Assembly: GCF_003019035.1 (NCBI RefSeq)
Contig: NZ_CP027447.1
Strand: one strand, 5' to 3'
DNA: 64,000 nt
DNA from: Escherichia coli
GTDB taxonomy: Bacteria > Pseudomonadota > Gammaproteobacteria > Enterobacterales > Enterobacteriaceae
This document shows, in pieces, positions 3,234 to 33,995 of the stretch. The position numbers and the translations under genes are program-made. Position 1 is the first letter of the stretch. Every line of letters begins with the position of its first letter. The notes under the pieces are model-generated. The model saw only the letters and a program-made list of their open reading frames with translations. It searched no databases and had not been told where the DNA came from.

Positions 3234-3460
3234 TGGCTGATGCAATGGATCTCGTACAGCAGCGCGTTGAAGAAGAACGCCAACGCCATATCCGTGCTGC
3301 CCGTGCCAAAACGCCGGGCGTGTCCCGCGTGCTTTGCATTGAGTGTGAAGCGCCAATTCCGCCAGCACGCCGCCGTGCCATTCCGGGTGTGCAGCTTTGC
3401 ATTACCTGTCAGGAAATCGCAGAGCTGAAAGGCAAACATTACAACGGAGGTGCTGTATGA
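3233..3460 (+). CDS. TraR/DksA-type C4 zinc-finger protein
   Basis: CxxC-N17-CxxC motif (CIECEAPIPPARRRAIPGVQLCITC); typical P2-family early gene. Confidence 0.7.
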   Translation: MADAMDLVQQRVEEERQRHIRAARAKTPGVSRVLCIECEAPIPPARRRAIPGVQLCITCQEIAELKGKHYNGGAV

Positions 3461-4314
3461 GCACCATCCTGAAATGGGCGGGAAATAAAACTGCCATAAT
3501 GTCCGAACTGAAAAAACATCTTCCTGCTGGCCCGCGACTGGTTGAACCTTTCGCGGGTTCCTGTGCTGTGATGATGGAGACGGATTATCCCAGCTATCTG
3601 GTTGCGGATATTAATCCTGATTTAATCAACCTCTATAAAAAGGTTGTCGCTGATTGTGAATCGTTTATATCTCGCGCCAGAGTTTTATTTGAGAACGCAA
3701 ACAGGGAGATGGATTATTACAACATAAGGCAGGAGTTTAATTACTCAACTGAAATTACTGATTTCATGAAAGCGGTATATTTCCTGTATCTCAATCGTCA
3801 CGGTTACCGTGGTTTATGTCGCTATAACAAGAGCGGGCATTTCAACATTCCCTACGGTAATTATAAAAATCCGTATTTCCCTGAAAAAGAAATTCGCGCA
3901 TTTGCAGAGAAAGCCCAGCGGGCAACGTTTATCTGCGCCAGCTTTGATGAAACGCTGGCGATGCTGCAGGTGGGGGATGTGGTGTATTGCGATCCGCCTT
4001 ATGACGGCACGTTTTCCGGTTATCACACTGACGGCTTCACTGAAGATGACCAGTATCATCTGGCATCCGTTCTTGAGCATCGGTCATCAGAAGGACATCC
4101 GGTCATTGTTTCTAACAGTGACACATCCCTGATCCGTTCGCTGTATCGCAATTTTACTCACCACTACATCAAGGCAAAACGCAGCATCGGCGTAGCAGCT
4201 GGTGAGAGTAAATCTGCAACAGAAATCATCGCTGTTTCTGGGGCACGCTGCTGGGTGGGATTTGATCCTTCGCGTGGCGTGGATAGTTCTGCTGTGTACG
4301 AGGTGCGTGTATGA
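3457..4314 (+). CDS. dam: DNA adenine methyltransferase (Dam family)
   Basis: DPPY catalytic motif (VYCDPPYDG) and AdoMet-binding-like EPFAGSCAV; GGAGG RBS; ATGA overlap with upstream gene. The ORF-track start 3397 was rejected as an N-terminal over-extension. Confidence 0.85.
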
Positions 4315-6725
4315 GTCATGACGATATGAGCAACTCTAGCGGCTTTAACGAGGCCGCTGCATCATTTTCATGGAACGGCCCGAAAAAGGCCATTAACCCT
4401 TATCTGGACCCGGCGGAAGTTGCGCCGGAGTCTGCACTTTCAAACCTGATCACTCTGTATGCTGCCGATAACGAGCAGGAACAACTGCGCCGCGAGGCAC
4501 TGAGTGAGCAGGTCTGGGAGCGTTATTTCTTTAATGAATCCCGTGATCCTGTCCAGCGCGAAATGGAGCAGGATAAGCTCATTAGCCGGGCAAAGCTGGC
4601 GCATGAGCAGCAGCGTTTTAATCCAGACATGGTCATTCTGGCTGACGTCAACGCCCAGCCTTCCCATATCAGCAAGCCGCTGATGCAACGTATTGAATAC
4701 TTCAGCAGCCTGGGCAGGCCAAAGGCTTATTCCCGCTATTTGCGTGAGACGATTAAGCCATGTCTGGAACGACTGGAGCATGTACGCGACAGTCAGCTAT
4801 CCACTTCTTTTCGCTTTATGGCAAGCCATGAAGGGCTGGACGGCCTGCTGATCCTGCCTGAAATGAGTCAGGATCAGGTGAAACGCCTGTCTACCCTTGT
4901 CGCTGCGCATATGAGCATGTGTCTTGATGCCGCTTGTGGTGATTTGTACGCCACCGATGATGTTAAGCCAGAAGAAATCCGCAAGACATGGGAAAAGGTG
5001 GCAGCGGAAACCCTACGTTTGGATGTCATCCCGCCTGCGTTTGAGCAACTCCGTCGGAAAAGAAACCGCCGTAAACCAGTGCCCTATGAACTCATTCCGG
5101 GCTCGCTGGCGCGTATGCTGTGCGCCGACTGGTGGTATCGGAAATTGTGGAAGATGCGTTGCGAATGGCGGGAAGAGCAGTTGCGTGCTGTCTGCCTGGT
5201 CAGCAAAAAAGCATCTCCCTATGTCAGCTATGAAGCTGTGATGCATAAACGTGAGCAGCGCCGTAAGTCGCTGGAGTTTTTCCGTTCTCATGAACTGGTG
5301 AACGAAGACGGAGACGCGCTGGATATGGAAGATGTGGTAAACGCCAGCTGCAGCAACCCGGCGCATCGCCGCAATGAGATGATGGCCTGTGTTAAAGGTC
5401 TGGAGCTTATCGCGGAAATGCGCGGTGACTGCGCCGTTTTCTACACCATTACCTGTCCGTCACGTTTCCATTCCACGCTCAATAACGGCAGACCCAACCC
5501 GACCTGGAAAAACGCGACGGTAAGACAAAGCAGCGATTATCTGGTCGGTATGTTTGCTGCATTTCGTAAGGCGATGCACAAAGCCGGGTTGCGCTGGTAT
5601 GGCGTGCGGGTGGCTGAGCCGCATCACGACGGCACAGTTCACTGGCACCTGTTGTGTTTCATGCGCAAAAAAGACCGCCGCGCCATTACTGCATTGTTGC
5701 GTAAGTTTGCTATCCGTGAAGACCGCGAGGAGCTGGGCAATAACACGGGGCCGCGCTTTAAGTCTGAGTTGATTAACCCGCGCAAAGGTACGCCAACAAG
5801 CTACATCGCGAAATACATCAGTAAGAACATTGACGGGCGTGGTCTGGCTGGCGAGATCAGCAAGGAAACGGGGAAATCCCTGCGTGATAATGCTGAATAC
5901 GTTAATGCCTGGGCGTCTCTGCATCGTGTTCAGCAATTCCGCTTCTTTGGCATTCCGGGGCGTCAGGCTTACCGCGAACTGCGATTGCTGGCTGGTCAGG
6001 CGGCAAGGCAACAGGGGGACAAAAAAGCAGGTGCGCCGGTACTGGATAACCCGCGCCTTGATGCAATCCTGGCTGCTGCTGATGCTGGTTGTTTTGCCAC
6101 CTACATCATGAAGCAGGGCGGCGTACTGGTTCCCCGCAAATATCACCTGATCAGAACCGCTTATGAAATCAACGAAGAGCCGACCGCCTATGGCGATCAC
6201 GGCATTCGTATTTATGGCATCTGGTCACCCATTGCAGAGGGCAAGATCTGCACTCATGCAGTGAAGTGGAAAATGGTTCGTAAGGCCGTTGACGTTCAGG
6301 AGGCGGCAGCCGACCAGGGCGCTTGCGCCCCTTGGACTCGTGGCAATAACTGTCCCCTTGCTGAAAATTTGAACCAACAAGGGAAAGACAAATCAGCTGA
6401 TGGGGACTCCAGAACGGATATTACCCGTATGAATGACAAGGAGTTGCACGATTACCTGCACAGTATGAGCAAAAAAGAGCGCCGGGAACTGGCTGCAAGG
6501 TTACGCCAGGTGAAACCGAAACGGCGTAAAGACTACAAACAGCGAATTACAGACCATCAGCGACAGCAGCTCGTCTATGAACTGAAGTCCAGGGGATTTG
6601 ATGGCAGCGAGAAAGAAGTCGATTTGCTCCTTCGCGGCGGCAGTATTCCGTCAGGAGCAGGCCTGCGTATCTTCTATCGGAACCAACGTCTGAAGGAAGA
6701 TGATAAGTGGCGGAACCTGTATTAA
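4311..6725 (+). CDS. replication initiation endonuclease (P2 gpA / 186 A homolog, rolling-circle type)
   Basis: 804-aa protein with HUH-like motif (VHWHLLCF) and downstream tyrosine region (YIAKYISKN); position after dam as in P2-like phages. Confidence 0.85.
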
Positions 6726-8236: not shown

Positions 8237-8303
8237 CGCGCGCTTATTACTTTGATAGTACTCGGGTTATAATATGGATGACTATCTATCTCGGAGAATG
8301 TGC

Positions 8304-9956
8304 ATGTCATTGGACTATATTAAAGAACAGTTGTCAGACTTTATTTCATCTGCAGAACCTGAGGTAATGGCTATTCAGGGTGAATGGGGGATTGGGAAAA
8401 CCTATACTTGGAATACTTTCTTAAAGGAAAATAAAAATAAGATTGCATTTAATAGATATAGTTACGTCTCTCTTTTTGGTGTTAATTCATTGGACGCATT
8501 AAAATATTCCATCTTTGAAAATACAATTACAAAAGATTTTATTGGAAATAAACCTAATTTAAAAACAGCAACACAAAATACAAAGGGACTTCTTGAATCC
8601 TGCACTAGAAAGACCGCTCGTTTGTTAAAAGAAACACCTGTTGTGAAAAATTTCGCTACGACACTTGAGTCAATGTCATTTATGTCAATTACTAATGTTA
8701 TTGTAGTCATAGATGACTTAGAAAGACGTGGTAAAAATTTAGAAGTGAAAGATGTCTTAGGGTTGGTTTCTTTATTGAAAGAACAAAAAAATTGTAAGGT
8801 GGTTCTTTTACTTAATAATGGGACAAGTGGTATGGATGATTACTCCACTTATAAAGAAAAGGTTATTGATAGAGAGATTACCTATAACCCTACGCCAGAA
8901 GAATGTGCAGCTATAGCATATAAAAATAATTCTGATGTTCATAAATTATTAAGCAAATACTCCATTTCTCTGGGTATTAAAAATATTCGGATACTGAAAA
9001 AAATAGAGCGGTTTTTGCTAGCCTTGTTACCTGCTATTAACGTTAATTTTGATAAAATTGCAAATGAAGTCGCACGCTCCTTAACTTTGTATTGTTGGAG
9101 TCATTACGCATTTACTCCAGATGGAGATGTACCATCATTGGAATATATTAGAAATATGAGAAATATCTATATGCGTGATGAAAAAGAGGATGGAAAAGGA
9201 AAAAAATGGCTTAATACTTTGCTTATATATGGTTATAAAAAAACAAACGAACTTGATGAAGTCCTTATAGACATGGTTAAGCATGGATATATTGATATGA
9301 ACAATTTTCAAAGGCAAGTAAGTCTAAGAAATGATGAACTTATCCGTGATAGTAAGCGAGGTTCACTGTTTGAAGCATGGAAGCTTTTCTATAATTCATT
9401 TGAAGATAACCGAAATCAGGTTGTTGATAATCTATATCAAGCGGTGGTTGGTGGGATAGAGTATGTAACTCCAAGTGACTTGGATAGTGTTGTCGGACTG
9501 TATAGAGATTTAGATGAAAATATTAAAGCAAGTGAATTAATAAGTAAATTTATTAATTACGGCAATGATGCTCTTAAGGAATATGTCCAATCTATTTACA
9601 TGAATGTTCATCCTATAAAAGATGCTGAGTTAAAGTCAAAAATCCAAGATTATTCTATTACTTTAAATCTGGATGGTTCTATAAAGGATGTTCTAATAAA
9701 ATTATCAAGTCAGAATGGTTGGTCTGATAGGCACGAGGAAATATTGGATGCTGCCTCAGAGGATGACTACTATGATTTATTTAAAAAAGTCATTCTTGAA
9801 GGTGGTGATTCAATAATAGCCACTGCTCTTAAGTTTGGTGGGTATAGCAATGGTTCAGATAGAATGAAACGCATCGGAGAAAAAGCGAGAAATGCTTTGA
9901 TAAGAATTGGAAATGAGTCGAAGATTAATAAAATACGTGTTAGACGGTATTTGTAA
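8304..9956 (+). CDS. KAP-family P-loop NTPase (standalone, ~550 aa)
   Basis: Walker A GEWGIGKT (KAP signature GxWGxGK[ST]) and Walker B VIVVIDDLERR; no obvious transmembrane insert; AT-rich; perfect TATAAT at 8268-8273 upstream. ATG 8304 chosen for RBS spacing; the track ORF begins at 8274. Confidence 0.8.
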   Translation: MSLDYIKEQLSDFISSAEPEVMAIQGEWGIGKTYTWNTFLKENKNKIAFNRYSYVSLFGVNSLDALKYSIFENTITKDFIGNKPNLKTATQNTKGLLESCTRKTARLLKETPVVKNFATTLESMSFMSITNVIVVIDDLERRGKNLEVKDVLGLVSLLKEQKNCKVVLLLNNGTSGMDDYSTYKEKVIDREITYNPTPEECAAIAYKNNSDVHKLLSKYSISLGIKNIRILKKIERFLLALLPAINVNFDKIANEVARSLTLYCWSHYAFTPDGDVPSLEYIRNMRNIYMRDEKEDGKGKKWLNTLLIYGYKKTNELDEVLIDMVKHGYIDMNNFQRQVSLRNDELIRDSKRGSLFEAWKLFYNSFEDNRNQVVDNLYQAVVGGIEYVTPSDLDSVVGLYRDLDENIKASELISKFINYGNDALKEYVQSIYMNVHPIKDAELKSKIQDYSITLNLDGSIKDVLIKLSSQNGWSDRHEEILDAASEDDYYDLFKKVILEGGDSIIATALKFGGYSNGSDRMKRIGEKARNALIRIGNESKINKIRVRRYL

Positions 9957-9994: not shown

Positions 9995-11026
9995 CTAATT
10001 CAATGAATAATCTTTGAAGGCTATTATTTTTTTCTTTAGCCAAATATTAACTTCTACAAGTCTTTTTTGTAAAGGAATTAACTCATTTCGCACAAAAACG
10101 CAACCGGCTTTCTCTATATCCCCAAATCCCCCAACATTATTAGGCATTATCCCCATCATTTGTGGCGGTACACGGTGCGCAGCCATCATGTCATCGCGGC
10201 TGACATTTTTGATATTCAGAAACTCATCCTTCGCCGCGACTTCTGACAGAGGAATGATCTGAAGGCCGTCCTTTTTGCCGTTAGGCGAGTACATAAACAG
10301 GTTGCGGAAGTTGCCTGGACCTTTGGCGCTTTTCATCGCGTTGCGGAGATTGTTCACATCCTCCTGATTCTGCGCGGCGTCGGTCATGTACATGATGAAG
10401 CCTGCATGGCTGCCGTTGATGTAATACTTACGGCGGAACAGCGTGGCAGACTCGTTGAGCAGGGCGGATGGAATGGCAGAAAGATAGCCTGGCAGGCCGT
10501 AGATCTCCTGGTTGATGTCCGGTTCCATCAGATGAAAAATGCTGCCTTTCGTGAACTGATACGGCTGGGTTGTCATACCGTATTGCACAAACCAGTAGGT
10601 ATCCAGGTCTAACCCACGTCGGGTGTATTTTGCCAGCGCAGGCTCAAGGGCGATAACTTCACCGAATCGGTTCGTGCGTTTCTCCAGGTAGGCGTTACCA
10701 AATACCAGATAGTCCTGCACAAAACGCGAAAAAGCCTGTTGGCTGAGCAGCGGATGAGGGATATAGGTACTGGTCAGAATGTTGCACTTTACTGCAATCG
10801 GGGAACTGTGATGCACGGCAGCGCGGAAGGTGCGTGCCAGTCCGTCAAAACTTACGGGTGGCTCATACCAGCGATCCGTCTGTACGCATTCCACATAGTC
10901 CAGCAGTTCGCGGCGGTCCAGTACAGGAATGGGATCACCAAAGCTGAAAGCTTCGGCTGAAATTTGATTTTTATGCTGACTCTGTTTCGTCGTCGCAGCG
11001 CGGTTTTTCTTACTCTTTCCCATCAA
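9995..11026 (-). CDS. portal protein (P2 gpQ homolog)
   Basis: 343-aa ORF, leftward, followed by the terminase ATPase gene; P2 Q-P arrangement. Confidence 0.9.
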   Translation of the reverse strand: MMGKSKKNRAATTKQSQHKNQISAEAFSFGDPIPVLDRRELLDYVECVQTDRWYEPPVSFDGLARTFRAAVHHSSPIAVKCNILTSTYIPHPLLSQQAFSRFVQDYLVFGNAYLEKRTNRFGEVIALEPALAKYTRRGLDLDTYWFVQYGMTTQPYQFTKGSIFHLMEPDINQEIYGLPGYLSAIPSALLNESATLFRRKYYINGSHAGFIMYMTDAAQNQEDVNNLRNAMKSAKGPGNFRNLFMYSPNGKKDGLQIIPLSEVAAKDEFLNIKNVSRDDMMAAHRVPPQMMGIMPNNVGGFGDIEKAGCVFVRNELIPLQKRLVEVNIWLKKKIIAFKDYSLN

Positions 11027-17397: not shown

Positions 17398-17530
17398 CGG
17401 TGATCTGAACGCATTGCTGGATGAAACGGAGGCCGCCTGGGCGGTCTGTGCAGACAAAGTGGACATGATTATTGCGTGTCAGGAGCGAAACAGTGAACAA
17501 ACCACAATCCCTGCGCCACGCCCTCAATAA
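17240..17530 (+). CDS. LysC (Rz1-like outer-membrane lipoprotein spanin), overlapping LysB in another frame
   Basis: Lipobox LTLSGC after a signal-like segment; GTG start; embedded in/overlapping lysB as in P2. Confidence 0.6.
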   Translation: MRTRIYAAGLILLCLLTLSGCGNVRHSPEVQLTVSGCPRVTPCRLEQAAPRTNGDLNALLDETEAAWAVCADKVDMIIACQERNSEQTTIPAPRPQ

Positions 17531-17924
17531 AGCGGTGCCTTATGTCCGTCATAACCCGGACAAACTGCACCTGTTTGTGGATAACGGTTCGCTGGTTGCC
17601 ACCGGGGCCAGCTCCATGTCATGGGAGTACCGTTACACCCTGAACGTGGTGATTGAGGATTTCAGCGGCGACCAGAATCTGTTGATGGCCCCGGTTTTGC
17701 TGTGGCTGCGGGATAACCAGCCCGATGCCATCAATAACCCGGCGTTACGGGAAAAGCTATTCACCTTTGAGGTGGATATTTTGCGCAACGATGTCTGTGA
17801 TATCAGCCTGAACCTGCAACTGACGGAGCGTGTGCTGGTCAGCACTGACGGCAGCGTGTCGAACGTTGAAGCGGTAGCGGAACCTGATGAACCTGAAGAA
17901 ATGTGGACGGTGAAACGTGGCTGA
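17472..17924 (+). CDS. tail completion protein (P2 gpR homolog)
   Basis: 150-aa ORF after the lysis genes; size and position match gpR. Confidence 0.75.
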   Translation: MRVRSETVNKPQSLRHALNKAVPYVRHNPDKLHLFVDNGSLVATGASSMSWEYRYTLNVVIEDFSGDQNLLMAPVLLWLRDNQPDAINNPALREKLFTFEVDILRNDVCDISLNLQLTERVLVSTDGSVSNVEAVAEPDEPEEMWTVKRG

Positions 17925-18375
17925 ACTGCAGAAAGTTGACGACTGGCTGAGTGCCTTGCTGGCGAATCTGGAGCCAGCCGCAAGAAGCCGCATGGTGCGT
18001 CAGCTGGCGCAGGAGCTGCGCCGGACACAGCAGCAGAATATCAGGATGCAACGCAACCCTGACGGCAGCAGTTATGAACCGCGCAAGGTCACAGCGCGCA
18101 GTAAAAAAGGCCGCATCAAACGTCAGATGTTTGCAAAGCTGCGCACCACAAAATACCTGAAAACCGCCGCCAGCGCCGACTCTGCCAACGTACAGTTTGA
18201 AGGCAAGGTGCAGCGCATTGCCCGCGTTCACCATTACGGCCTACGTGATCGCGTCAGCCGCAAAGGACCTGAGATCCGTTACGCAGAGAGAAAATTGCTT
18301 GGATTAAATGGATGTGAAAAATTAATTCGAAAAATATTCATTATGAATTTATTTTCTGGGGATTGGCTGGCATAA
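17917..18375 (+). CDS. tail completion / virion morphogenesis protein (P2 gpS homolog)
   Basis: 152-aa ORF; last gene before the AT-rich cargo; stop codon lies inside a terminator hairpin. Confidence 0.75.
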   Translation: MAELQKVDDWLSALLANLEPAARSRMVRQLAQELRRTQQQNIRMQRNPDGSSYEPRKVTARSKKGRIKRQMFAKLRTTKYLKTAASADSANVQFEGKVQRIARVHHYGLRDRVSRKGPEIRYAERKLLGLNGCEKLIRKIFIMNLFSGDWLA

Positions 18376-18397
18376 AAGCCAGCCTTTATTTTTTTAT
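18365..18397 (+). terminator. rho-independent terminator after S
   Basis: GGCTGGC-ATAAAA-GCCAGCC hairpin followed by TTTATTTTTTT. Confidence 0.55.
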
Positions 18398-19251
18398 GTG
18401 ATGGCCCCTATCTTTTGATTGTAATAACTATAATCAGCATGTTCTTCTGTATAAAAAATCTCAAATGCAGACAAGATGTTTGCGTAAAAACTATCCTTGG
18501 ATATAGAGGTTTTTTTATTGATGGATGCCAAAAAGTTTGTTATAAATCTTAATGATGCTGAGAAAAGAAAGTGCCCTTTCACCCAATGATTTATAGATGT
18601 ATTTTCTGGGAATTGAATGTTGTTTTTTTCTGCCAAACCATTAGTAGTAAACGATTCAGGTAGTCTATTGATATATTCATCTATTTTTTTCTTGCATATA
18701 TTGTATGAATTTCTTGATTGCATAAAACGATCACAGGAATCACCAATTACGGAGCATCCTAATTTATTTAAATGATTGTGAATATCTAGTATTATTAAGT
18801 TCTCAATGTTGCTATAGAAGTTAGAAAGCCAATTTCCTACATCTATTTCCTGCATTTTTTTTGTGCAAAAACGGCCTGTGTTTTTGAGTATGTGTGATAT
18901 GATTTTTTCATCAATGATTGTGTTTTCTATTGAATATCCCTTTGTGTAAATAATATTTGTATGCTTTACTATGTTGTCAGAAAAATGGTTTAGATCCGAA
19001 TCTCTGGCAACTATGGCGTTTATTTCTCCTGAGGTTATTTTTTCGATATATGGTTGTAAAGCTTCACATCCACCAACATCTTGAACTTCTACATTAAAAC
19101 GACCATTTTTTTTAAAAATTATTTCCCAAAAAGCAATGTCATCTTCACCTTCAACATAGACCATAATATCAGCATCATAAAATAAACTGATCACATTTTC
19201 CGCTTCATTAGACCAAGAAAAGTTTTCTGCATTAGAATCATTGATTAGCAT
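18394..19251 (-). CDS. Toprim/DUF4435-like protein (AriB-like), 285 aa
   Basis: Toprim-like acidic motifs VYVEGEDD (conserved Glu) and IVARDSD (DxD); overlaps the upstream ATPase gene by 14 bp; very AT-rich. Confidence 0.65.
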   Translation of the reverse strand: MLINDSNAENFSWSNEAENVISLFYDADIMVYVEGEDDIAFWEIIFKKNGRFNVEVQDVGGCEALQPYIEKITSGEINAIVARDSDLNHFSDNIVKHTNIIYTKGYSIENTIIDEKIISHILKNTGRFCTKKMQEIDVGNWLSNFYSNIENLIILDIHNHLNKLGCSVIGDSCDRFMQSRNSYNICKKKIDEYINRLPESFTTNGLAEKNNIQFPENTSINHWVKGHFLFSASLRFITNFLASINKKTSISKDSFYANILSAFEIFYTEEHADYSYYNQKIGAIT

Positions 19252-20494
19252 TGACTAATCTCTCCATATTGAAAATGGCGTTTTTATATTTAGATGCAAC
19301 TTCAGGAGAATGGGTTGCAGCAATAATTTGTGCATTAGGATTTAATTTTTTTATGGCAGGGATAATATTTCTTTGCCATTGAATATGTAAGGAAAGCTCA
19401 GGCTCATCAGTTAGGAAAATATATTGTTGCCCTCTTTGTAAGAGGGTCTCAATGAATAAAATTAGCAGTTGTTTTTCACCAGAAGATAAACTTTCTAAAA
19501 CTATTGGCCCATAGGTGTTATTTATGACTAACAATCCCGATTGAAAATGAAATTCTTTATCGGTGATAAAATTTCTTAGTATGCTTAAGAATTGTTCTAT
19601 TGGAGAAAATATTTTTGATGTTTTCTCTTTTGAAGTTAATGACATTTTGATTATTTTTTGTGTTTTTCTCAATGCTTCGATCGAACGAATATCAAAGCCT
19701 CTTTCACTTTTATTCTTTAATTCTGAAATGGTATTATTAATTGTTTCAACATGAAAGCTGATTTTTTTACGAATGTTTTGATCAATAGCATTTAACTGTG
19801 TGTATGCATTAAGGAGGTTTTGTTTTTCTTCCTCTTTGTTAAAGTTAATGTTGTAAGCAGGATTCTCCATATCTTCCTTGCTATAAAGTATTGATGCCAG
19901 AACCTCTTTTTGAAGTTCTAATGCGATATCTCTGGCTTTCTGGGATAGTTCAAGTTGATATTTTGTAAGTTCCTGTATTAATTCTGATAACTTATAGTCA
20001 ACAGGGTTGATAAAACGAGAGCCATATTTATCTTTAACTTCAAAATCATCACTATTTCTTAATCTGTAAACAGATAAAGAAGAAAGCGAGACTAGTTTTG
20101 CTAGTTCTGTTCTTAGTTCTTCTGTTTCATCATGCACTCTACGTCTATAACTAAGAGATATTCTTCTATCATCAGTGTTAAATAAACGAATTGTGTGTTT
20201 TTTAGATGAAAGCTGATATTCTATTTTGGAAAATGGAGATGTATCGCTTTCAAGTTTTTTGACTTTGATTGTTTTTGTCTTTTTTTTATCTTTAAGTTTT
20301 ATTTCGGCACTATTGAAATCAGCATTGTTAATACTGTCCAAATCAAGGGATAATATTGAGTGCAGAAGGTTCATAAAGGTTGTTTTACCCGTGCCATTTC
20401 GGCCTATAATAATGTTTACATCATCATTAAATGAGCAGGAACAGTTTAATCGCTGCCAAAAGCCATTAATTGTGACGCTTTGAATTTTATACAT
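19238..20494 (-). CDS. ABC/SMC-like ATPase (AAA_15/AAA_21-type, AriA-like), 418 aa
   Basis: Walker A GRNGTGKTT, ABC-signature-like LSSGEKQ, Walker B YIFLTDEPELSLH, H-loop IIAATHSPEV, with a charged coiled-coil-like insert between them. Confidence 0.75.
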   Translation of the reverse strand: MYKIQSVTINGFWQRLNCSCSFNDDVNIIIGRNGTGKTTFMNLLHSILSLDLDSINNADFNSAEIKLKDKKKTKTIKVKKLESDTSPFSKIEYQLSSKKHTIRLFNTDDRRISLSYRRRVHDETEELRTELAKLVSLSSLSVYRLRNSDDFEVKDKYGSRFINPVDYKLSELIQELTKYQLELSQKARDIALELQKEVLASILYSKEDMENPAYNINFNKEEEKQNLLNAYTQLNAIDQNIRKKISFHVETINNTISELKNKSERGFDIRSIEALRKTQKIIKMSLTSKEKTSKIFSPIEQFLSILRNFITDKEFHFQSGLLVINNTYGPIVLESLSSGEKQLLILFIETLLQRGQQYIFLTDEPELSLHIQWQRNIIPAIKKLNPNAQIIAATHSPEVASKYKNAIFNMERLVNANQ

Positions 20495-20541
20495 CTATGT
20501 ATCCTTTATTATTAGTTGAACTACTTAAATTTATAATCATT

Positions 20542-20559
20542 TGTGTCATTCTCAGTACA
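20542..20559. promoter_or_regulatory. candidate late-promoter activator site upstream of V (TGTGT-N9-TACA)
   Basis: TGTGTCATTCTCAGTACA; same pattern as the sites upstream of O and FI. Confidence 0.4.
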
Positions 20560-20606
20560 ATTATGCCGTTTGGAAGATATTATTTCAAATGTTTAATATA
20601 TACGGT

Positions 20607-21185
20607 ATGAACGCACAATTAACCGAAATCATGCGCCTTATCACCAATCTGATCCGCACTGGGGTAGTCACCGAAGTGGACCGGGAGAATTGGCTTTGCC
20701 GGGTGAAAACGGGCGACCTTGAAACTAACTGGATCAGTTGGCTGACGCTGCGTGCCGGGAATGCCCGCACATGGTGGCGACCATCGGAAGGTGAGCAGGT
20801 GGTGCTGCTGAGTCTTGGCGGCAATCTGGAGACTGCCTTTGCGCTGCCCGCTGTCTATTCGAATCAGTTCGCACCACCGTCGACGTCGGCGGACGCCTGC
20901 GTGACAGAACATCCTGACGGTGGCTGGTTTGAATACGAACCCGCCACCGGGCGCTGGTATGTCAAGGGCATCAAATCAATGGTCATTGAGGCCGCTGACA
21001 ACATCACCATGAAAACCAGTGAGTTTGTACTGGAGGCTGACCGCACGCGCATTAACAGCGAAGTGGTGATCAATGGTGGCGTTACCCAGGGCGGCGGAGC
21101 GATGAGTTCTAACGGGATCGTGGTTGATGTGCATCAGCATACTGGCGTCCTGAAAGGCGGCGATACAACCGGAGGCCCGGTATGA
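20607..21185 (+). CDS. baseplate spike/assembly protein (P2 gpV homolog)
   Basis: 192-aa ORF from ATG 20607 (MNAQLTEIMRL...); first gene of the V-W-J-I-H-G operon. Confidence 0.85.
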   Translation: MNAQLTEIMRLITNLIRTGVVTEVDRENWLCRVKTGDLETNWISWLTLRAGNARTWWRPSEGEQVVLLSLGGNLETAFALPAVYSNQFAPPSTSADACVTEHPDGGWFEYEPATGRWYVKGIKSMVIEAADNITMKTSEFVLEADRTRINSEVVINGGVTQGGGAMSSNGIVVDVHQHTGVLKGGDTTGGPV

Positions 21186-25016: not shown

Positions 25017-26054
25017 TTATATTTGCCTACCTCCTAATAAAATGTGTGAGGTGTATTTGTTGGTTTTCAATAACCTTGCTACAATTATACAGGTGGTTAC
25101 AATAAGGAAAACAAATGAAGGGGTTATGATGAGGTTATATATGAGTGGATTTTCGCATAGGTTATTAATGTTCACGTATGCCTCTATTCTGTGAAAAATA
25201 AACGACGAGATTATATAGATGGGAAAGGTGTAAGTACCGACAAAGGATGTGGCTCGTATAAATAAATTATTTTTCGTTGATAAAAATGTATAAGCATATA
25301 TAAGCGATATGCTTCCGGCGAAGCCAATGAAGTAGCGAAATATAATAATGAATGATTGATGCCAGAAATCAACATTCTCATATGTCATTTTAGATATGTA
25401 AATATAATACTCTCTATTCCATAGGAGAAGCATACCAATCCATGTTAATACGGCTAACACACCAATTTTGTGCCTATTTCTAGAGGCAAAATCTAAAATG
25501 CGATGGGCGGATATACCAGCGATAAAATAAGGGGCCATAAATTTAATTTTGTCCATATTCCAATCATCTCCATATGCAAGGGATATACTAAATATCAGTA
25601 AATAAAGCACCACAGAATATTGTTTGCTTATTGAGTGACAAATAGTATAAACAATAGATACTGCAAAGAGTGCAGAAAGGAACCAGAAGGCGTAGATGGC
25701 TCCATATCTAATATTTATTAAATTTATATCTCTTCCCACAAAAATGGATTCAGCAATGAACCATGCAATGGATGGGATTATTAACTGCATGAATTTTCTT
25801 TTGATAATTGATGATGGTTTTCTCTTGAGAGAAAAATAGAAAAGATAGCCGCTAAGCAGCATAAAAAATGGCATGTGGAAGCTGTAAATGGTAATAAATA
25901 ATGGGTTGTCAAAAAAATTGAAACTATCTTTTTTTACAAACTGAATTGAATGGCCCCACACGACAAAAATTATAGCTAATCCTTTCATTGAGTCTATAAT
26001 GGAATTTCGAGTGCTGGGTGTCTCTGTTATAATAAGATGTGGTTCGTTTTTCAT
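25017..26054 (-). CDS. acyltransferase family 3 integral membrane protein (O-antigen/LPS O-acetyltransferase-like)
   Basis: 345 aa, highly hydrophobic multi-TM; N-terminal region GLAIIFVVWGHSIQF typical of acyltransferase-3; very AT-rich; opposite strand to tail genes. Confidence 0.75.
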   Translation of the reverse strand: MKNEPHLIITETPSTRNSIIDSMKGLAIIFVVWGHSIQFVKKDSFNFFDNPLFITIYSFHMPFFMLLSGYLFYFSLKRKPSSIIKRKFMQLIIPSIAWFIAESIFVGRDINLINIRYGAIYAFWFLSALFAVSIVYTICHSISKQYSVVLYLLIFSISLAYGDDWNMDKIKFMAPYFIAGISAHRILDFASRNRHKIGVLAVLTWIGMLLLWNREYYIYISKMTYENVDFWHQSFIIIFRYFIGFAGSISLIYAYTFLSTKNNLFIRATSFVGTYTFPIYIISSFIFHRIEAYVNINNLCENPLIYNLIITPSFVFLIVTTCIIVARLLKTNKYTSHILLGGRQI

Positions 26055-26386: not shown

Positions 26387-26706
26387 TGCTTATTGGCTAT
26401 GTACGTGTATCAACAAATGACCAGAACACTGATTTGTAATGCAATGCGCTGAACTGCGCGGGATGTGCGCGGATTTTTGAGGATAAAATCAGTGGCACTA
26501 AGTCCGACAGGCCGGGACTGGCTGCAGCTCGCGCCAAAGGCAGAGTAGGTGGACGCCGTCCTAAGTTGACCACCGAACAGTGGGCACAGATTGGACGTTT
26601 ACTCGAGGCCGGAGAATCAAGACAGCGTATTGCACTGATTTTTGATGTAGGCGTTTCTACCATTTATCGAAAATTTCCGGCAAATAAGAGCAATGAATCT
26701 CCCTGA
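26387..26706 (+). pseudogene. DNA invertase (Hin/Gin/Pin/Cin serine recombinase) pseudogene
   Basis: N-terminus MLIGYVRVSTNDQNTDL then in-frame TAA (26438-26440) where Hin has Gln; RPGL joins directly to AAARAKGR (catalytic core of ~100 codons missing); C-terminal HTH GGRRPKLTTEQWAQIGRLL...STIYRKF is in a different frame (1-nt shift near 26640). Confidence 0.8.
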
Positions 26707-26848: not shown

Positions 26849-28021
26849 ATGGCTCAGGATTACCACCACGGGGTGCGCGTAGTTGAAGTCAACGAAGGCA
26901 CCCGATCCATTACCACGGTGAGCACCGCCATCGTGGGTATGGTCTGCACGGGCGATGATGCCGATGCAAAAATGTTTCCTCTTAATAAACCCGTGCTGAT
27001 CACTGATGTGCTGACTGCCAGCGGTAAAGCGGGTGAGTCCGGTACGCTGGCCCGTTCGCTGGATGCCATCGCTGACCAGGCAAAACCCGTGACCGTTGTT
27101 GTGCGTGTGCCGCAGGGTGAAACGGAAGAAGAAACCACGACCAATATCATCGGAGCAGTGACCGCTGAAGGTAAAAAAACAGGCATGAAAGCCCTGTTAT
27201 CTGCCCAGTCACAGCTCGGCGTTAAACCGCGCATTCTCGGCGTGCCAGGTCACGACACGAAGGCGGTAGCTACTGAGTTGCTGAGCGTGGCGCAAAGCCT
27301 GCGTGGGTTTGCTTACCTGTCAGCGTATGGTTGCAAGACGGTGCAGGAAGCAATCACTTACCGTGAAAACTTCAGTCAGCGTGAAGGAATGCTGATCTGG
27401 CCCGACTTTACTGGCTGGGACACGGTGCTGAATGCCGAAGCAACGGCTTATGCCACCGCCCGTGCGCTTGGTCTGCGCGCTAAAATTGACGAGCAGACCG
27501 GATGGCACAAAAGCCTGTCCAACGTGGGCGTGAACGGTGTCACCGGAATTTCTGCTGATGTGTTCTGGGATCTGCAGGACCCGGCAACCGATGCAGGTCT
27601 GCTGAACCAGAACGACGTCACCACGCTTGTGCGTAAAGACGGTTTCCGCTTCTGGGGTTCCCGCAGCCTGAGTGATGACCCGCTCTTTGCCTTCGAAAAC
27701 TACACCCGCACGGCGCAGGTGTTGATGGACACGATGGCAGAAGCACACATGTGGGCGGTGGATAAACCGCTTAACCCGTCGCTGGCCCGCGACATTATCG
27801 AAGGTATCCGCGCCAAAATGCGCAGCCTGGTCAGTCAGGGCTATCTCATTGGTGGTGATTGCTGGCTGGATGAGTCGGTGAACGACAAAGACACGCTGAA
27901 AACCGGAAAACTCACCATCGACTATGACTACACGCCAGTGCCGCCACTTGAAAATCTGATGCTGCGCCAGCGCATCACCGATCAGTACCTGGTGAATTTC
28001 GCCAGCCAGGTCAGCGCGTAA
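26849..28021 (+). CDS. tail sheath protein (P2 gpFI homolog)
   Basis: 390-aa ORF followed by the tail tube gene. Confidence 0.9.
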
Positions 28022-28030
28022 GGGGACAAC

Positions 28031-28546
28031 ATGGCTTTACCACGCAAATTAAAACATCTGAACTTGTTTAACGACGGGAACAACTGGCAGGGGATCGTTG
28101 AGTCGCTGACGCTGCCGAAATTCACCCGCAAATATGAGAAGTATCGCGGCGGCGGTATGCCGGGGGCGGTGGATGTGGATCTGGGACTGGATGACAGTGC
28201 ACTGGATACAGAATTTTCCATTGGTGGTACTGAACTGCTGCTGTTTAAGCAGATGGGCAAATCCACGGTGGATGGCATCCAGCTGCGCTTTACCGGCTCT
28301 ATCCAGCGTGACGATACCGGGGAAGTGCAGGCCGTGGAGCTTGTCGTGCGTGGACGTCACAAAGAAGTGGATTCCGGCGAGTGGAAGACGGGCGAAAGCA
28401 ACACCACCAAAGTGACCAATACCAACAGCTACGCGAAGCTGACCATCAATGGTGAGGTGCTCTATGAAGTGGACCTTATCAACATGGTGGAAATTGTGGA
28501 CGGTGTGGACCTGATGGAAGCGCACCGCAACGCCCTCGGCCTCTGA
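28031..28546 (+). CDS. tail tube protein (P2 gpFII homolog)
   Basis: 171-aa ORF after the sheath gene. Confidence 0.9.
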   Translation: MALPRKLKHLNLFNDGNNWQGIVESLTLPKFTRKYEKYRGGGMPGAVDVDLGLDDSALDTEFSIGGTELLLFKQMGKSTVDGIQLRFTGSIQRDDTGEVQAVELVVRGRHKEVDSGEWKTGESNTTKVTNTNSYAKLTINGEVLYEVDLINMVEIVDGVDLMEAHRNALGL

Positions 28547-28600: not shown

Positions 28601-28903
28601 ATGAGCGATAAGCAGACTGAAAAGACCATTCAACTGGATACCCCCATCAAGCGCGGTAAAACAGAAATCACCGAAATTGTGCTGCGTAAACCGCAGTCCG
28701 GTGCGCTGCGCGGTACACGCCTGCAGGCCATTATGGATATGGATGTAAACGCGATGATGACCGTGATCCCCCGCATCTCCAGTCCGGCACTGACTGCACA
28801 GGAAATTGCAGAGATGGACCCGGCAGATCTCACTGCCATGTCGGTTGAGGTTGTCACTTTTTTGTTGAAGAAGTCGGTGCTTGCCGTTTTACCGACAGCC
28901 TGA
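28601..28903 (+). CDS. tail assembly chaperone (P2 gpE homolog)
   Basis: 100-aa ORF upstream of the tape measure gene; contains a T6G slippery site near its 3' end. Confidence 0.8.
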   Translation: MSDKQTEKTIQLDTPIKRGKTEITEIVLRKPQSGALRGTRLQAIMDMDVNAMMTVIPRISSPALTAQEIAEMDPADLTAMSVEVVTFLLKKSVLAVLPTA

Positions 28904-29037
28904 CGGTTGACGATCTGGTGGCAGATATCGCCACCATTTTTCACTGGCCGCCATCCGTTACTGACGTTATGCCGCTGACCGAAGTGCTGGAATGGCGGTA
29001 TAAAGCGATTCAGAGAAGCGGGGCCAACGATGAGTGA
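28601..29037 (+). CDS. tail assembly chaperone frameshift product (gpE+E' equivalent, -1 frameshift at 28858-28864)
   Basis: Slippery TTTTTTG at 28858-28864; the -1 frame continues open (FFVEEVGACRFTDSLTVDDLVADIATIFHWPP...RSGANDE) to TGA at 29035-29037, overlapping the T start. Confidence 0.65.
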
Positions 29038-32000
29038 TAACAACCTGCGTCTGCAGGTCATTCTTAATGCGGTTGACAAGCTCACCCGCCCATTTCGATC
29101 TGCGCAGGCCAGTTCAAGAGAACTGGCTGCTGCTGTCAAAAAATCCCGCGATGCAATAAAGCAGCTTGATCAGGCCGGGAGCAGTCTGGACAGCTTCCGA
29201 AAGCTGCAGGCAGAAAATCAGAAATTAGGCGACAGGCTGAACTATGCCCGCCAGCGTGCAAATTTGCTCAGTCAGGAACTGGGAGCGATGGGGCCGCCTT
29301 CGCAACGTCAGGTTGTTGCTCTGGGCCGTCAACGGCTGGCTGTTCAGCGCCTGGAAGAACGCCAGAAAAAGCTGCAGCAGCAGACGGCGCTTGTGCGTGC
29401 TGAACTGTACCGGGCGGGAATTTCTGCGAAAGACGATGCGGGAGCAACTGCCCGTTTAGCCCGTGAAACATCACGTTATAACCAGGAACTTTCGAAACAG
29501 GAGGCGCGGCTGAAGCGACTGGGGGAAGCTCAGCGCAGGATGAATGCAGCGCGTGCCAGTTATGCCCGTTCGCTGGAGGTGCGTGATCGTATTGCAGGTG
29601 CCGGAGCCACCACCACGGCTGCAGGGCTGGCAATGGGTGCGCCAGTGATGGCGGCAGTAAAAAGCTATACCAGCATGGAAGATGCCATGAAAGGTGTGGC
29701 AAAGCAGGTCAATGGTCTGCGTGACGATAATGGCAACCGCACTGCACGTTTTTATGAAATGCAGGATGCCATCAAGGCTGCCAGCGAACAGTTGCCGATG
29801 GAAAACGGTGCGGTGGACTTCGCTGCACTGGTTGAAGGTGGTGCGCGCATGAACGTCGCAAACCCTGACGACAGCTGGGAAGATCAGAAACGTGACCTGC
29901 TGGCCTTCGCCAGTACGGCAGCAAAGGCGGCAACAGCCTTTGAGCTGCCAGCGGATGAACTGTCAGAAAGTCTGGGGAAAATCGCCCAGCTCTACAAAAT
30001 CCCCACCCGCAATATTGAACAGCTCGGTGATGCGCTGAACTATCTGGATGATAACGCCATGTCGAAAGGGGCAGACATCATTGATGTGATGCAACGTCTG
30101 GGCGGTGTGGCTGACCGTCTGGATTATCGTAAAGCGGCGGCGCTGGGTTCCACCTTCCTGACACTGGGCGCTGCGCCAGAGGTTGCAGCCAGTGCAGCAA
30201 ACGCGATGGTGCGTGAATTGTCCATTGCCACCATGCAAAGCAAGAGTTTCTTTGAAGGGATGAATCTGCTGAAACTCAATCCTGAAGTGATTGAAAAGCA
30301 GATGACGAAGGATGCGATGGGAACCATCCAGCGCGTGCTGGAGAAGGTAAACGCGCTGCCGCAGGACAAGCGCCTGTCTGCCATGACTATGTTGTTTGGT
30401 AAAGAGTTTGGCGATGACGCGGCGAAACTGGCAAACAACCTGCCGGAACTGCAGCGTCAGTTAAAACTGACAGCGGGCAATGATGCGCTTGGCTCCATGC
30501 AGAAAGAATCCGACATTAACAAGGATTCACTTTCTGCGCAGTGGTTGCTGGTCAAAACCGGAGCGCAGAACACCTTCAGCAGCCTGGGCGAAACGCTGCG
30601 CCAGCCGCTGATGGATATTCTGTACACGGTGAAAAGCGTCACGGGGGCGTTGCGTCGCTGGGTGGAAGCTAACCCGGAACTGACAGGCACACTGATGAAA
30701 GCATCGGCTGTTGTGGCTGCGGTTACCGTCGGCCTCGGCACCTTAGCGGTGGCGCTGGCTGCAGTGCTGGGGCCGCTGGCAGTGATCCGTCTGGGATTCT
30801 CTGTGTTGGGTATCAAAACGTTATCTTCCGTTACGGCAGCAGTAACCCGAACCAGCAGCGCGTTGTCCTGGCTGGCTGGCGCACCACTGGCACTGCTGCG
30901 ACGCGGGCTTGCTTCATCGGGCAACGCCGCAGGTTTACTTACTGCGCCGTTGTCGTCTTTGCGCCGCACGGCATCACTGACGGGAAATGTCCTGAAAACT
31001 GTAGCAGGTGCGCCGGTTGCATTTTTGCGGTCTGGATTATCCGGTTTACGTGCTGTTGCTGTGATGTTTATGAATCCTCTGGCGGTACTGCGCGGTGGAC
31101 TGGCCGCCGCAGGCACGGTGCTGCGAGTACTGGCATCTGGTCCACTGGCGATGCTGCGCGTTGCCCTGTATGTCATATCTGGTCTGTTAGGTGCTCTGCT
31201 CAGTCCGATAGGTCTTGTGGTTACTGCACTGGCGGGCGTGGCGCTGGTTGTCTGGAAATACTGGCAACCCATCACCGCATTTCTCGGTGGCGTGGTGGAA
31301 GGATTCAAAGCGGCGGCAGGTCCCATCAGTGCAGCGTTCGAACCGCTTAAGCCCGTGTTCCAGTGGATTGGCGACAAAGTGCAGGCGCTGTGGGGCTGGT
31401 TTACTGATCTGCTGACGCCCGTTAAGTCGACCTCTGCCGAACTGCAGAGCGCAGCGGCAATGGGGCGGCGATTCGGGGAGGCACTGGCGGAAGGGCTGAA
31501 TATGGTCATGCATCCGCTGGACTCCCTGAAATCCGGCGTTTCCTGGTTGCTGGAGAAGCTCGGCATTGTCAGTAAAGAGGCCGCAAAGGCAAAACTGCCG
31601 GAAAGCGTGACGCGTCAGCAACCTGCGACGGTGAATGCAGACGGTAAAGTGATGATGCCATCGGGTGGTTTTCCATCATGGGGATATGGCTTTGCGGGGA
31701 TGTATGACAGCGGCGGGTATATCCCGCGCGGGCAGTTTGGCATCGTCGGTGAAAACGGGCCGGAAATTGTTAACGGCCCGGCAAATGTGACCAGCCGGAG
31801 AAATACAGCTGCACTGGCTGCCGTTGTTGCCGGAATGATGGGCGTTGCTGCCGCGCCAGCAGAGCTTCCACCGTTGCACCCCTTGGCACTTCCCGCGAAA
31901 GGTGGAGAAGCAATTGTGAGTCGCGCAGCCACTGTGCCGCTCGTTCAACGGATTGAGGCACCGACGCAGATCATCATTCAGACGCAGCCAGGACAAAGTG

Positions 32001-32107
32001 CGCAGGATATTGCGCGGGAGGTGGCACGCCAGCTTGATGAACGTGAACGCAGGCTGAAGGCAAAAGCCAGGAGTAACTACAGCGATCAGGGGGGATACGA
32101 CGCATGA
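29030..32107 (+). CDS. tail tape measure protein (P2 gpT homolog)
   Basis: 1025-aa ORF, coiled-coil N-terminal region and Ala/Gly-rich repeats; position after E/E'. Confidence 0.9.
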   Translation: MSDNNLRLQVILNAVDKLTRPFRSAQASSRELAAAVKKSRDAIKQLDQAGSSLDSFRKLQAENQKLGDRLNYARQRANLLSQELGAMGPPSQRQVVALGRQRLAVQRLEERQKKLQQQTALVRAELYRAGISAKDDAGATARLARETSRYNQELSKQEARLKRLGEAQRRMNAARASYARSLEVRDRIAGAGATTTAAGLAMGAPVMAAVKSYTSMEDAMKGVAKQVNGLRDDNGNRTARFYEMQDAIKAASEQLPMENGAVDFAALVEGGARMNVANPDDSWEDQKRDLLAFASTAAKAATAFELPADELSESLGKIAQLYKIPTRNIEQLGDALNYLDDNAMSKGADIIDVMQRLGGVADRLDYRKAAALGSTFLTLGAAPEVAASAANAMVRELSIATMQSKSFFEGMNLLKLNPEVIEKQMTKDAMGTIQRVLEKVNALPQDKRLSAMTMLFGKEFGDDAAKLANNLPELQRQLKLTAGNDALGSMQKESDINKDSLSAQWLLVKTGAQNTFSSLGETLRQPLMDILYTVKSVTGALRRWVEANPELTGTLMKASAVVAAVTVGLGTLAVALAAVLGPLAVIRLGFSVLGIKTLSSVTAAVTRTSSALSWLAGAPLALLRRGLASSGNAAGLLTAPLSSLRRTASLTGNVLKTVAGAPVAFLRSGLSGLRAVAVMFMNPLAVLRGGLAAAGTVLRVLASGPLAMLRVALYVISGLLGALLSPIGLVVTALAGVALVVWKYWQPITAFLGGVVEGFKAAAGPISAAFEPLKPVFQWIGDKVQALWGWFTDLLTPVKSTSAELQSAAAMGRRFGEALAEGLNMVMHPLDSLKSGVSWLLEKLGIVSKEAAKAKLPESVTRQQPATVNADGKVMMPSGGFPSWGYGFAGMYDSGGYIPRGQFGIVGENGPEIVNGPANVTSRRNTAALAAVVAGMMGVAAAPAELPPLHPLALPAKGGEAIVSRAATVPLVQRIEAPTQIIIQTQPGQSAQDIAREVARQLDERERRLKAKARSNYSDQGGYDA

Positions 32108-32589
32108 TGATGGTGCTGGGATTGTACGTGTTTATGCTGCGCACCGTTCCGTATCAGGAACTGCAGTATCAACGCAGCTGGCGACATGCGGCAAACAGTC
32201 GGGTAAACCGACGTCCGTCCACGCAGTTTCTGGGACCGGAAAACGACATGCTGACGCTTTCCGGTGTTCTTATGCCGGAAATAACAGGCGGCAGGCTGTC
32301 GTTGCTGGCACTGGAGCAGATGGCAGAACAGGGGAAAGCATGGCCCCTGATTGAAGGCAGCGGCACGATTTACGGCATGTATGTGATTGAGGGACTGAAT
32401 CAGACTAAAACGGAGTTTTTCCGCGACGGTATGCCGCGCCGGATTGAGTTCACCCTGTCGCTCAAACGAGTGGATGAATCCCTGTCCGATATGTTCGGTG
32501 ATCTCAGTGCGCAACTGAATAATCTGCAGGACACGGCAACGTCTGCCTTAAGCGATATCAGTAAAACGGTGGGAGGGCTGCTGTCGTGA
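32104..32589 (+). CDS. tail protein (P2 gpU homolog)
   Basis: 161 aa; ATGA overlap with T stop. Confidence 0.85.
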   Translation: MMMVLGLYVFMLRTVPYQELQYQRSWRHAANSRVNRRPSTQFLGPENDMLTLSGVLMPEITGGRLSLLALEQMAEQGKAWPLIEGSGTIYGMYVIEGLNQTKTEFFRDGMPRRIEFTLSLKRVDESLSDMFGDLSAQLNNLQDTATSALSDISKTVGGLLS

Positions 32590-33686
32590 ATTTCAGCTCT
32601 GAACTGCTTAACAAAGGCAACAAAACTCCCGCATTCAGCATCAGTATTGAGGGCAGGGATATCACCACTGTGCTGGATAACCGCCTGATGAGTTTGACGC
32701 TGACGGATAACCGGGGCTTTGAAGCGGACCAGCTTGATCTGGAGCTGGATGACGCTGACGGAAAAATCGTGCTGCCGCGCCGTGGTGCGGTTATTACGCT
32801 GGCGCTGGGCTGGAAGGGGCAGCCGCTTTTCCCGAAAGGGGCATTCACAGTGGACGAGATTGAACACACTGGCGCACCGGACCGCCTGACTATCCGGGCG
32901 CGAAGTGCTGATTTTCGGGAAACGCTGAATACCCGCCGTGAAAAATCGTGGCATAAGACCACCGTCGGGGAAGTGGTGAAGGAAATAGCCGCGCGGCACA
33001 AGCTGAAGATGGCACTGGGTAAAGACCTGTCGGATAAGCCCGTGGAGCATATAGACCAGACTAATGAGAGTGACGGCAGTTTTCTGATGCGGCTGGCGCG
33101 ACAGTACGGTGCCATCGCGTCGGTGAAAAATGGCAATCTGTTATTCATCCGGCAGGGGCAGGGCAAAAGCGCCACTGGTAAACCTCTGCCAGTGATCACT
33201 ATCACACGCAAGGACGGCGACAGTCACCGATTTACCCTGGCAGATCGCGGAGCCTACACGGGCGTAATTGCCAGCTGGTTGCATACCCGCGAACCTGCGA
33301 AGAAAGAAAGCACCACGGTGAAGCGTAAGCGCAGAACTAAGAAGCAGAAGAAAGAGCCGGAAGCGAAGCAGGGCGATTACCTGGTGGGTACGGATGAAAA
33401 CGTGCTGGTACTTAATCGCACTTATGCCAACCGGAGCAACGCTGAACGGGCAGCGAAAATGCAGTGGGAACGCCTGCAACGCGGCGTTGCGTCATTCTCG
33501 CTACAACTGGCGGAAGGTCGGGCAGATCTCTACACGGAAATGCCTGTGAAGGTCAGCGGCTTTAAACAGCCGATAGATGATGCGGAATGGACCATTACGA
33601 CTCTGACACATACCGTCAGCCCGGATAACGGTTTTACGACCAGTCTGGAGCTTGAAGTGAGGATTGATGATTTCGAAATGGAATGA
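32586..33686 (+). CDS. late control/tail protein D (P2 gpD homolog)
   Basis: 366 aa; last structural gene before ogr. Confidence 0.85.
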   Translation: MNFSSELLNKGNKTPAFSISIEGRDITTVLDNRLMSLTLTDNRGFEADQLDLELDDADGKIVLPRRGAVITLALGWKGQPLFPKGAFTVDEIEHTGAPDRLTIRARSADFRETLNTRREKSWHKTTVGEVVKEIAARHKLKMALGKDLSDKPVEHIDQTNESDGSFLMRLARQYGAIASVKNGNLLFIRQGQGKSATGKPLPVITITRKDGDSHRFTLADRGAYTGVIASWLHTREPAKKESTTVKRKRRTKKQKKEPEAKQGDYLVGTDENVLVLNRTYANRSNAERAAKMQWERLQRGVASFSLQLAEGRADLYTEMPVKVSGFKQPIDDAEWTITTLTHTVSPDNGFTTSLELEVRIDDFEME

Positions 33687-33776
33687 TTCTTCGCAATGGA
33701 GAACTTTTAAGTTTGCAAAATGGAATAATGCGGTATCATTATTGTGAATTTAGCAAAAATGGGGAGAACTCGAAAA

Positions 33777-33995
33777 ATGATGATTTGCCCACTGTGTGGA
33801 AGTGCCGCCCATACTCGCAGCAGTTTTCAGGTATCTTCATTGACCAAAGAGCGTTACAACCAGTGCCAGAACATTAACTGCAGCCATACTTTTGTTACCC
33901 ATGAAACTTTTGTTCGTTCGATTGCAACGCCAAAAGAGTCAAATCCGGTTCAGCCGCATCCAATGAAATCAGGACAGGTGGCGCTCTCTCTTTGA
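33777..33995 (+). CDS. ogr: Ogr/Delta-family zinc-finger late transcription activator
   Basis: MMICPLCGSAAHTRSS...CQNINCSHTF matches the Ogr C-x2-C...C-x4-C zinc finger; last phage gene before the host junction. Confidence 0.85.
   Translation: MMICPLCGSAAHTRSSFQVSSLTKERYNQCQNINCSHTFVTHETFVRSIATPKESNPVQPHPMKSGQVALSL

Follow-up and report, generated by a model that had tools for sequence, protein, structure and literature searches.

An E/E' frameshift cassette of the P2 type in the tail gene cluster of a common Escherichia coli prophage

The closest described counterpart of the locus considered here is the tail assembly chaperone pair of phage P2, in which ribosomes shift frame at a TTTTTTG heptamer to give a 91-residue E protein alongside a 142-residue E+E' product (Christie et al. 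2002, as cited in PMC3091744 and PMC3931495). In these secondary accounts of the same work, E' is described as having no ribosome binding site and as being made in the form of E+E', and the slip site as having no downstream hairpin. Production of two proteins with a common N-terminus, both of them needed for tail assembly, is reported for P2 alone (secondary citations in PMC3091744 and PMC3931495). A second point of reference is the G/GT pair of phage lambda, whose products are tail assembly chaperones (Levin 1993; Xu, Hendrix and Duda 2004, 2013, 2014, cited via PMC5009743); in the literature, amino-acid similarity to lambda gpG/gpT is described as absent. A third is the E. coli dnaX gene, for which, as for many IS elements, a review of frameshifting presents Shine-Dalgarno-like 5' stimulators as established.

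Here we describe a site of this kind in a stretch of 64,000 nucleotides from E. coli (NCBI RefSeq assembly GCF_003019035.1, contig NZ_CP027447.1), the whole of which was analysed and is referred to below as the window. The features discussed are collected in Table 1. We consider it very probable that the heptamer is where ribosomes undergo a programmed -1 frameshift in the E/E' chaperone pair of a P2-like (Peduoviridae) prophage lying between rcdA and ybjL. The finding is not new: the P2-type E/E+E' recoding signal is established knowledge, and the E. coli prophage family that bears it is very common. As a textbook recoding signal it has small discovery value, and its practical value lies in annotation.

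Table 1. Features of the E/E' cassette and of the surrounding tail gene cluster, with positions in the window.
Feature	Positions	Strand	Remarks
Tail sheath gene FI	26849-28021	+	First gene of the FI-FII-E-T-U-D cluster; PF04984, PF17482, PF22671
Tail tube gene FII	28031-28546	+	Upstream neighbour of E; PF04985 Phage_tube, 3.1e-59
Gene E, tail assembly chaperone	28601-28903	+	Zero-frame product, 100 aa; stop TGA 28901-28903
E+E', full fusion	28601-28864 joined to 28864-29037	+	145 aa
Shine-Dalgarno-like GAGGT	28847-28851	+	Candidate 5' stimulator, 6-7 nt 5' of the heptamer
Slippery heptamer T_TTT_TTG	28858-28864	+	Proposed site of the -1 shift; sequence and register confirmed
E' segment	28864-29037	+	-1 frame, 57 codons plus TGA 29035-29037; would be read only after slippage
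GTG used by annotation pipelines as start of the 39-aa 'GpE family' ORF	28918-28920	+	Cartapus CARTA_27 and PGAP WP_000763311.1 begin at the equivalent position
Tape measure gene T	29030-32107	+	Downstream neighbour of E/E'; 1025 aa; PF10145 PhageMin_Tail, 2e-18
gpU	32104-32589	+	PF06995, 2.8e-44
gpD	32586-33686	+	End of the tail cluster; PF05954, 2.5e-27
ogr-like gene	33744-33995		Follows gpD; NF007241, 3.6e-28; 97.8 bits, below the model's 116-bit cutoff

The cassette sits between the tube gene and the tape measure gene, and its geometry is that of a canonical slip site. The zero-frame reading at the heptamer is ACT TTT TTG, with base 28858 at codon position 3 of ACT, and the register in E is the X_XXY_YYZ register of tandem slippage. 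The TTT is codon 87 of E and the stop is codon 101—14 codons apart, the distance that the sequence-only reading had given. The -1 frame is shut upstream by a TGA at 28846-28848 and is open from 28849; the resulting ORF has 62 codons, starts just 3 codons ahead of the heptamer, and closes with a TGA that overlaps the ATG of the tape measure gene. Joined at the heptamer, 88 residues from E and 57 from the -1 frame make up the fusion; both its predicted length of about 145 residues and the open -1 frame running to a stop over the tape measure start were borne out. Gene E has an AGGA 7 nt 5' of its ATG.

If the site works as the P2 site is described to work, most ribosomes translating E would read past U_UUU_UUG and terminate at the zero-frame TGA, giving gpE. 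A minority would slip back one base with tRNA-Phe (on UUU) in the P site and tRNA-Leu (on UUG) in the A site; both tRNAs would re-pair with UUU_UUU, and the slipped ribosome would read the -1-frame codons of E' to their own TGA, giving gpE+E'—a protein with the N-terminus of gpE and a C-terminal Phage_P2_GpE domain. Slippage in this prophage, its efficiency, and the residue at the junction are matters of inference. The proposed function of E/E' in tail assembly is taken by analogy from lambda G/GT: the common E part would bind or coat the tape measure protein, while recruitment of the tube protein would fall to E', allowing the tail to polymerise to the right length. Neither gpE nor gpE+E' would end up in the virion.

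Profile searches place both parts of the fusion in described families. E matches PF10109 Phage_TAC_7 (1.1e-18, 67.5 bits against a cutoff of 25), a family described as 'tail assembly chaperone proteins E, or 41 or 14', and also phrog_103 (9.6e-44). Fusion residues 107-143 match PF06528 Phage_P2_GpE (2.9e-18, 65.5 bits against a cutoff of 23), and a phrog_1756 match (2.3e-22) spans residues 85-145, that is, from the junction onward. Given these last two matches, the -1 segment encodes a recognised, conserved protein domain. No NCBIfam model matched the fusion in a profile search, and a sequence search of solved structures gave no match with the single sequence and just a non-significant match to HslU with a profile. 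AlphaFold gives a confident model of the fusion, with a pLDDT of 88.8 and a pTM of 0.80, in which a single helix (residues 74-92) crosses the junction.

The alignment with P2 E/E' that the sequence-only reading had proposed gives 48.9% identity between P2 E+E' and the fusion over residues 7-145 (96% of the length, E = 5e-30), with the match lying in two frames. The P2 RefSeq record carries E and a joined E+E' coding sequence, and labels the T6G homologous to the present one 'site of -1 translational frameshift'; together with the two family matches, this upholds the assignment to the P2 gpE/gpE+E' arrangement. Equivalent -1 frameshifts are annotated in the records of KS5, FLC5, Smp131, and 186. 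A tblastn search with the fusion matched 419 phage records and, among the matches listed, those covering both halves align as two pieces in two frames.

For conservation of the site itself we compared 97 loci: 80 near-identical IMG/VR contigs, Cartapus, P2, 14 other divergent phages, and the window. A scan of viral contigs with E returned only loci 99-100% identical, which inform on population variation rather than on divergence; the divergent loci were drawn from a phage collection instead. The two observations that the sequence-only reading had named as counting against it—stop codons in the -1 frame of close relatives, and homologs lacking a slippery heptamer—were not encountered. The -1 frame contains no stops in 82 close relatives, which show no indels either. 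At all 97 loci E' lies in the -1 frame relative to E, and at all 97 an in-register X_XXY_YYZ heptamer lies inside the short E/E' overlap, out to phages of Burkholderia, Pseudomonas, and Vibrio. The heptamer is T6G at 90 of these loci and T7, T6C, T6A, CCCTTTC, GGGAAAG, or AAATTTT at the rest; of the 82 close relatives, 81 carry T6G and one carries T6A. This last locus (IMGVR_UViG_2778261510_000014) carries TTTTTTA, with the change at the homologue of window position 28864; the change is silent in E (Leu), replaces Val with Ile in E', and leaves the X_XXY_YYZ pattern in place.

The identity of the heptamers also bears on a second way in which E' could be brought into frame, namely transcriptional slippage, in which RNA polymerase would add an extra U while copying the T6 run, and ordinary translation of the lengthened mRNA would then yield E+E'. 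Most lineages have a homopolymer of T6 to T7 at the site, one inserted U would suffice to bring E' into frame, and transcriptional slippage serves comparable purposes in some bacteria according to a review. The same source describes bacterial transcriptional slippage on runs of nine A or T, however, against which six is short. In three distant lineages the equivalent place is held by CCCTTTC, GGGAAAG, and AAATTTT, which are non-homopolymeric and fit slippage by the ribosome rather than by the polymerase, and every run observed sits in the X_XXY_YYZ register. We regard transcriptional slippage as improbable, and ribosomal frameshifting remains our preferred reading of the heptamer.

Variation among the close relatives is partitioned by frame. 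Ahead of the heptamer, all 31 of 31 variable sites among the 82 close relatives are synonymous in the E frame; beyond it, the common variants (at 28887, 28923, 28938, and 28980) are synonymous in the -1 frame. The variant at 28887 lies in the zone where the two frames overlap, and it alters the tail of E while being silent in E': the window has T where 80 of the 82 close relatives have G, which makes the residue in the E tail Val here and Gly in the relatives. Within E', 14 of 22 substitutions relative to RE2010 and 16 of 25 relative to ST11-VIM1phi8.4 fall on third positions of the -1 frame. At the heptamer, purifying selection passes from the E frame to the -1 frame, which is what a frameshift product predicts. 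In an alignment of 16 lineages, conservation of -1-frame residues starts right at the slip site with the motif FLVAEVGA (F-L-V-A/E-E-V/L-G-A) and runs on into the invariant motifs A-D-I-x-x-x-F and W-R-x-x-A-x-x-R. The conservation of the register is partly enforced by the conserved x-F-L residues, and it is therefore not fully independent evidence for the ribosomal route.

How E' begins is the point on which the deposited annotation differs from the frameshift reading. In PGAP annotation and in most deposited phage records, E' figures as a 39-aa 'GpE family' protein of its own (28918-29037 in the window) rather than as part of a joined E+E', and if these entries are taken at face value E' would be an independent gene initiated at GTG 28918, with no frameshift at all. 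Separate 'GpE family phage tail protein' coding sequences are present in E. coli RefSeq, Cartapus, RE2010, ST11-VIM1phi8.4, and phiCTX, and the codon equivalent to this GTG is ATG or GTG in 12 of the 16 lineages. In the other four it is a non-start codon (A, W, I, or Y), yet the heptamer and the -1 relation persist there. GTG 28918 is the only candidate start early in E', and no Shine-Dalgarno motif was found in the 20 nt upstream of it, which accords with the description of P2 E' given above; protein conservation and the PHROG 1756 match reach 18 codons 5' of it, to the slip site, and the variant at 28887, silent in the -1 frame, also lies 5' of it. Given the missing Shine-Dalgarno motif, the non-start codons, and the conservation back to the slip site, we rejected separate initiation of E', a reading that we hold to be quite improbable; from the sequence, GTG 28918 is probably not a real start. 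The stand-alone E' entries in RefSeq E. coli and in many phage records constitute a systematic annotation problem.

We also looked for elements that might stimulate the proposed frameshift. Downstream, the search for a stimulatory RNA structure was negative: the 126 nt following the heptamer (28865-28990) fold no better than shuffled sequences (z = -0.53), which is consistent with the reported lack of a downstream hairpin in P2. Upstream, no stretch of the E gene shows better anti-Shine-Dalgarno pairing than the GAGGT listed in Table 1 (-6.3 kcal/mol, within the top 1.2% of windows), and in 9 of 16 lineages—which are related to one another—the best or near-best such pairing of the E gene (top ~1%) lies 4-11 nt 5' of the slip site. 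This signal is confounded by its overlap with conserved (E/K)-V codons and by shared ancestry, and we accordingly treat it as a possibility and not as a finding. It is doubtful, if conceivable, that the purine-rich GAGGT/AAGGTG at 4-11 nt 5' of the heptamer is a conserved Shine-Dalgarno-like stimulator that would act by pairing with 16S rRNA, as in dnaX, and would set the ratio of E to E+E'. If this were the case, it would provide a stimulator for P2-like phages, in which none is otherwise recognised.

The heptamer by itself carries little information. TTTTTTG occurs 29 times in the window (+ strand, 13; - strand, 16) and is not rarer than expected by chance; it is context and conservation that carry the argument. 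We applied a geometric filter under which the zero frame had to be open for 60 codons or more ahead of the heptamer and to reach a stop no further than 25 codons on, with the -1 frame open over 45 codons or more; 6 of the 534 X_XXY_YYZ heptamers on both strands of the window pass it. For three of the other five (5205, 32089, and 11412 on the - strand) the -1 frame is, by coordinates, that of a neighbouring or overlapping large ORF; among the filter-passing sites examined, a -1 ORF that lacks a start and matches a curated protein family is found only at 28858. The G_GGG_GGA at 32089-32095, which lies 5 codons ahead of the tape measure stop, has gpU in its -1 frame. This heptamer is probably coincidental, since an ATG at 32104, overlapping the T stop as ATGA, serves gpU as a start of its own.

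The abundance of TTTTTTG is one reason to ask whether this copy is a chance heptamer in a decaying prophage, with E' a relic that is no longer expressed; another is that the prophage bears foreign insertions and a truncated invertase. Against this, E/E' has neither -1-frame stops nor indels, and its silent variation is frame-specific across the 82 relatives. All tail and baseplate ORFs examined are of full length, FI, FII, E, T, U, D, and ogr included, and in its DNA the tail module shares 98% identity with sequenced phages, Cartapus and KP12 among them. The silent-site pattern, the lack of -1 stops, and the full-length tail ORFs led us to reject a chance or relic origin, the probability of which we put close to nil. 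As for the ogr-like gene, a relative has a homologous coding sequence that bears the annotation of an ogr/Delta-like zinc finger family protein.

An intact frameshift cassette is among the signs required of a tail module that could still work. The sequence-only reading had gone further, taking the site as support both for a functional tail assembly module and for an intact prophage. The first part fits the intact cassette and the full-length tail ORFs; the second overreaches, as the invertase is a remnant and the integrase lies outside the window. The cassette is consistent with a working tail module and by itself is no proof of an intact prophage. In a relative, whose prophage is inserted between rcdA and ybjL, the integrase sits immediately left of the window start, and here it would fall just outside the left edge; with the integrase beyond the window, a claim of intactness exceeds what this site can support. 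On the other side, the flank from ybjL to nfsA matches E. coli at 99%.

Upstream of FI, a Gin-like invertase is reduced to a 46-aa helix-turn-helix (HTH_7) remnant at 26566-26706, where relatives have a complete invertase of 189 aa along with tail-fibre segments that can be inverted. Here, it appears, tail-fibre switching has given way to cargo. Adjoining the remnant is a foreign Acyl_transf_3 acyltransferase gene (25017-26054, - strand, 33% GC), possibly encoding a surface-polysaccharide-modifying enzyme.

Several other features of the prophage (1-34100 in the window) may be recorded here. Its control region is 186-like, with a CI repressor (412-987, - strand), a CII-like gene (1355-1870), and a DNA adenine methylase (3397-4314). 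An island of 33-36% GC holds a KAP-family P-loop NTPase gene (8274-9956, + strand; Pfam 2.7e-9; padloc candidate system PDC-S49, 3.7e-25) and forms a second cargo hotspot, between a replication gene (4311-6725) and an ORF that is by position the putative portal gene (9995-11026, - strand). A PARIS-like defence pair at 18394-20494 (- strand) consists of AriB/DUF4435 (18394-19251, padloc 2e-21) and an AriA AAA ATPase (19238-20494, padloc 2e-38); it has a GC content of 31-38%, lies between ORFs at 17472-18375 that by position are putative tail completion genes and the baseplate gene V (20541-21185), and has the look of anti-phage cargo carried by the prophage. The window's exact 17.5-27 kb segment is not covered to 80% or more by any complete E. 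coli genome in the collection. The tail module is found at 95% identity or more in 1,333 of 5,426 complete E. coli genomes, or about a quarter.

The described systems with which we opened can now be set beside the locus. With dnaX, the likeness lies in the logic of a tandem-slippage heptamer and, as a candidate, in a possible Shine-Dalgarno-like element a few nucleotides 5' of it. The dnaX signal is a different heptamer (A_AAA_AAG, with a 5' Shine-Dalgarno-like element and a 3' hairpin), its Shine-Dalgarno-like spacing is longer than that seen here, and no 3' hairpin was found at the present site; the outcome there is early termination, whereas here it would be a C-terminal extension.

The lambda G/GT pair resembles E/E' in being a gene pair coupled by a -1 frameshift and flanked by the genes for the major tail (tube) protein and the tape measure, and the sequence-only reading's comparison with lambda is supported by this synteny and frame relation as one between positional and putative functional analogues. 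No similarity to lambda gpG/gpT was detected, and a Pfam scan at E <= 0.01 gave only PF10109 and PF06528; in the absence of sequence similarity, E/E' is an analogue of the lambda pair or at most a very remote homologue. The two settings differ in that P2 is a contractile-tailed myovirus, and in the partners of the chaperones, which are V and H in lambda and here would be the tube protein FII and the tape measure protein T, with roles assigned by analogy.

Among sequenced phages, close counterparts are Cartapus (Elveevirus; CARTA_26/27), Escherichia phage 500465-1, and Klebsiella phage KP12, with ~98% nucleotide identity over FII-E-E'. In Cartapus both protein parts are matched at 100%, the heptamer is the same, and the tape measure protein is also 1025 aa by coordinates; unlike the window with its truncated copy, it has a full-length Gin-like invertase upstream of FI. 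The records of all three phages carry E' as a separate 39-aa coding sequence and not as a joined frameshift product.

P2 itself is the system in which the arrangement has been described, and it differs from the present locus chiefly in dimensions and surroundings. The zero-frame tail past the slip site is 6 codons in P2 and 12 here, giving an E of 91 aa as against 100 aa; the tape measure protein is ~815 aa as against 1025 aa, by coordinates; and P2 has a C/Cox control region where this prophage has a 186-like CI/CII region. In the cassette proper the two agree: the gene order runs from FII through E/E' to T, both parts of the fusion belong to the same Pfam families, the fusions have 142 and 145 residues, respectively, and an identical TTTTTTG stands in the same register, with the E' stop overlapping the start of T.
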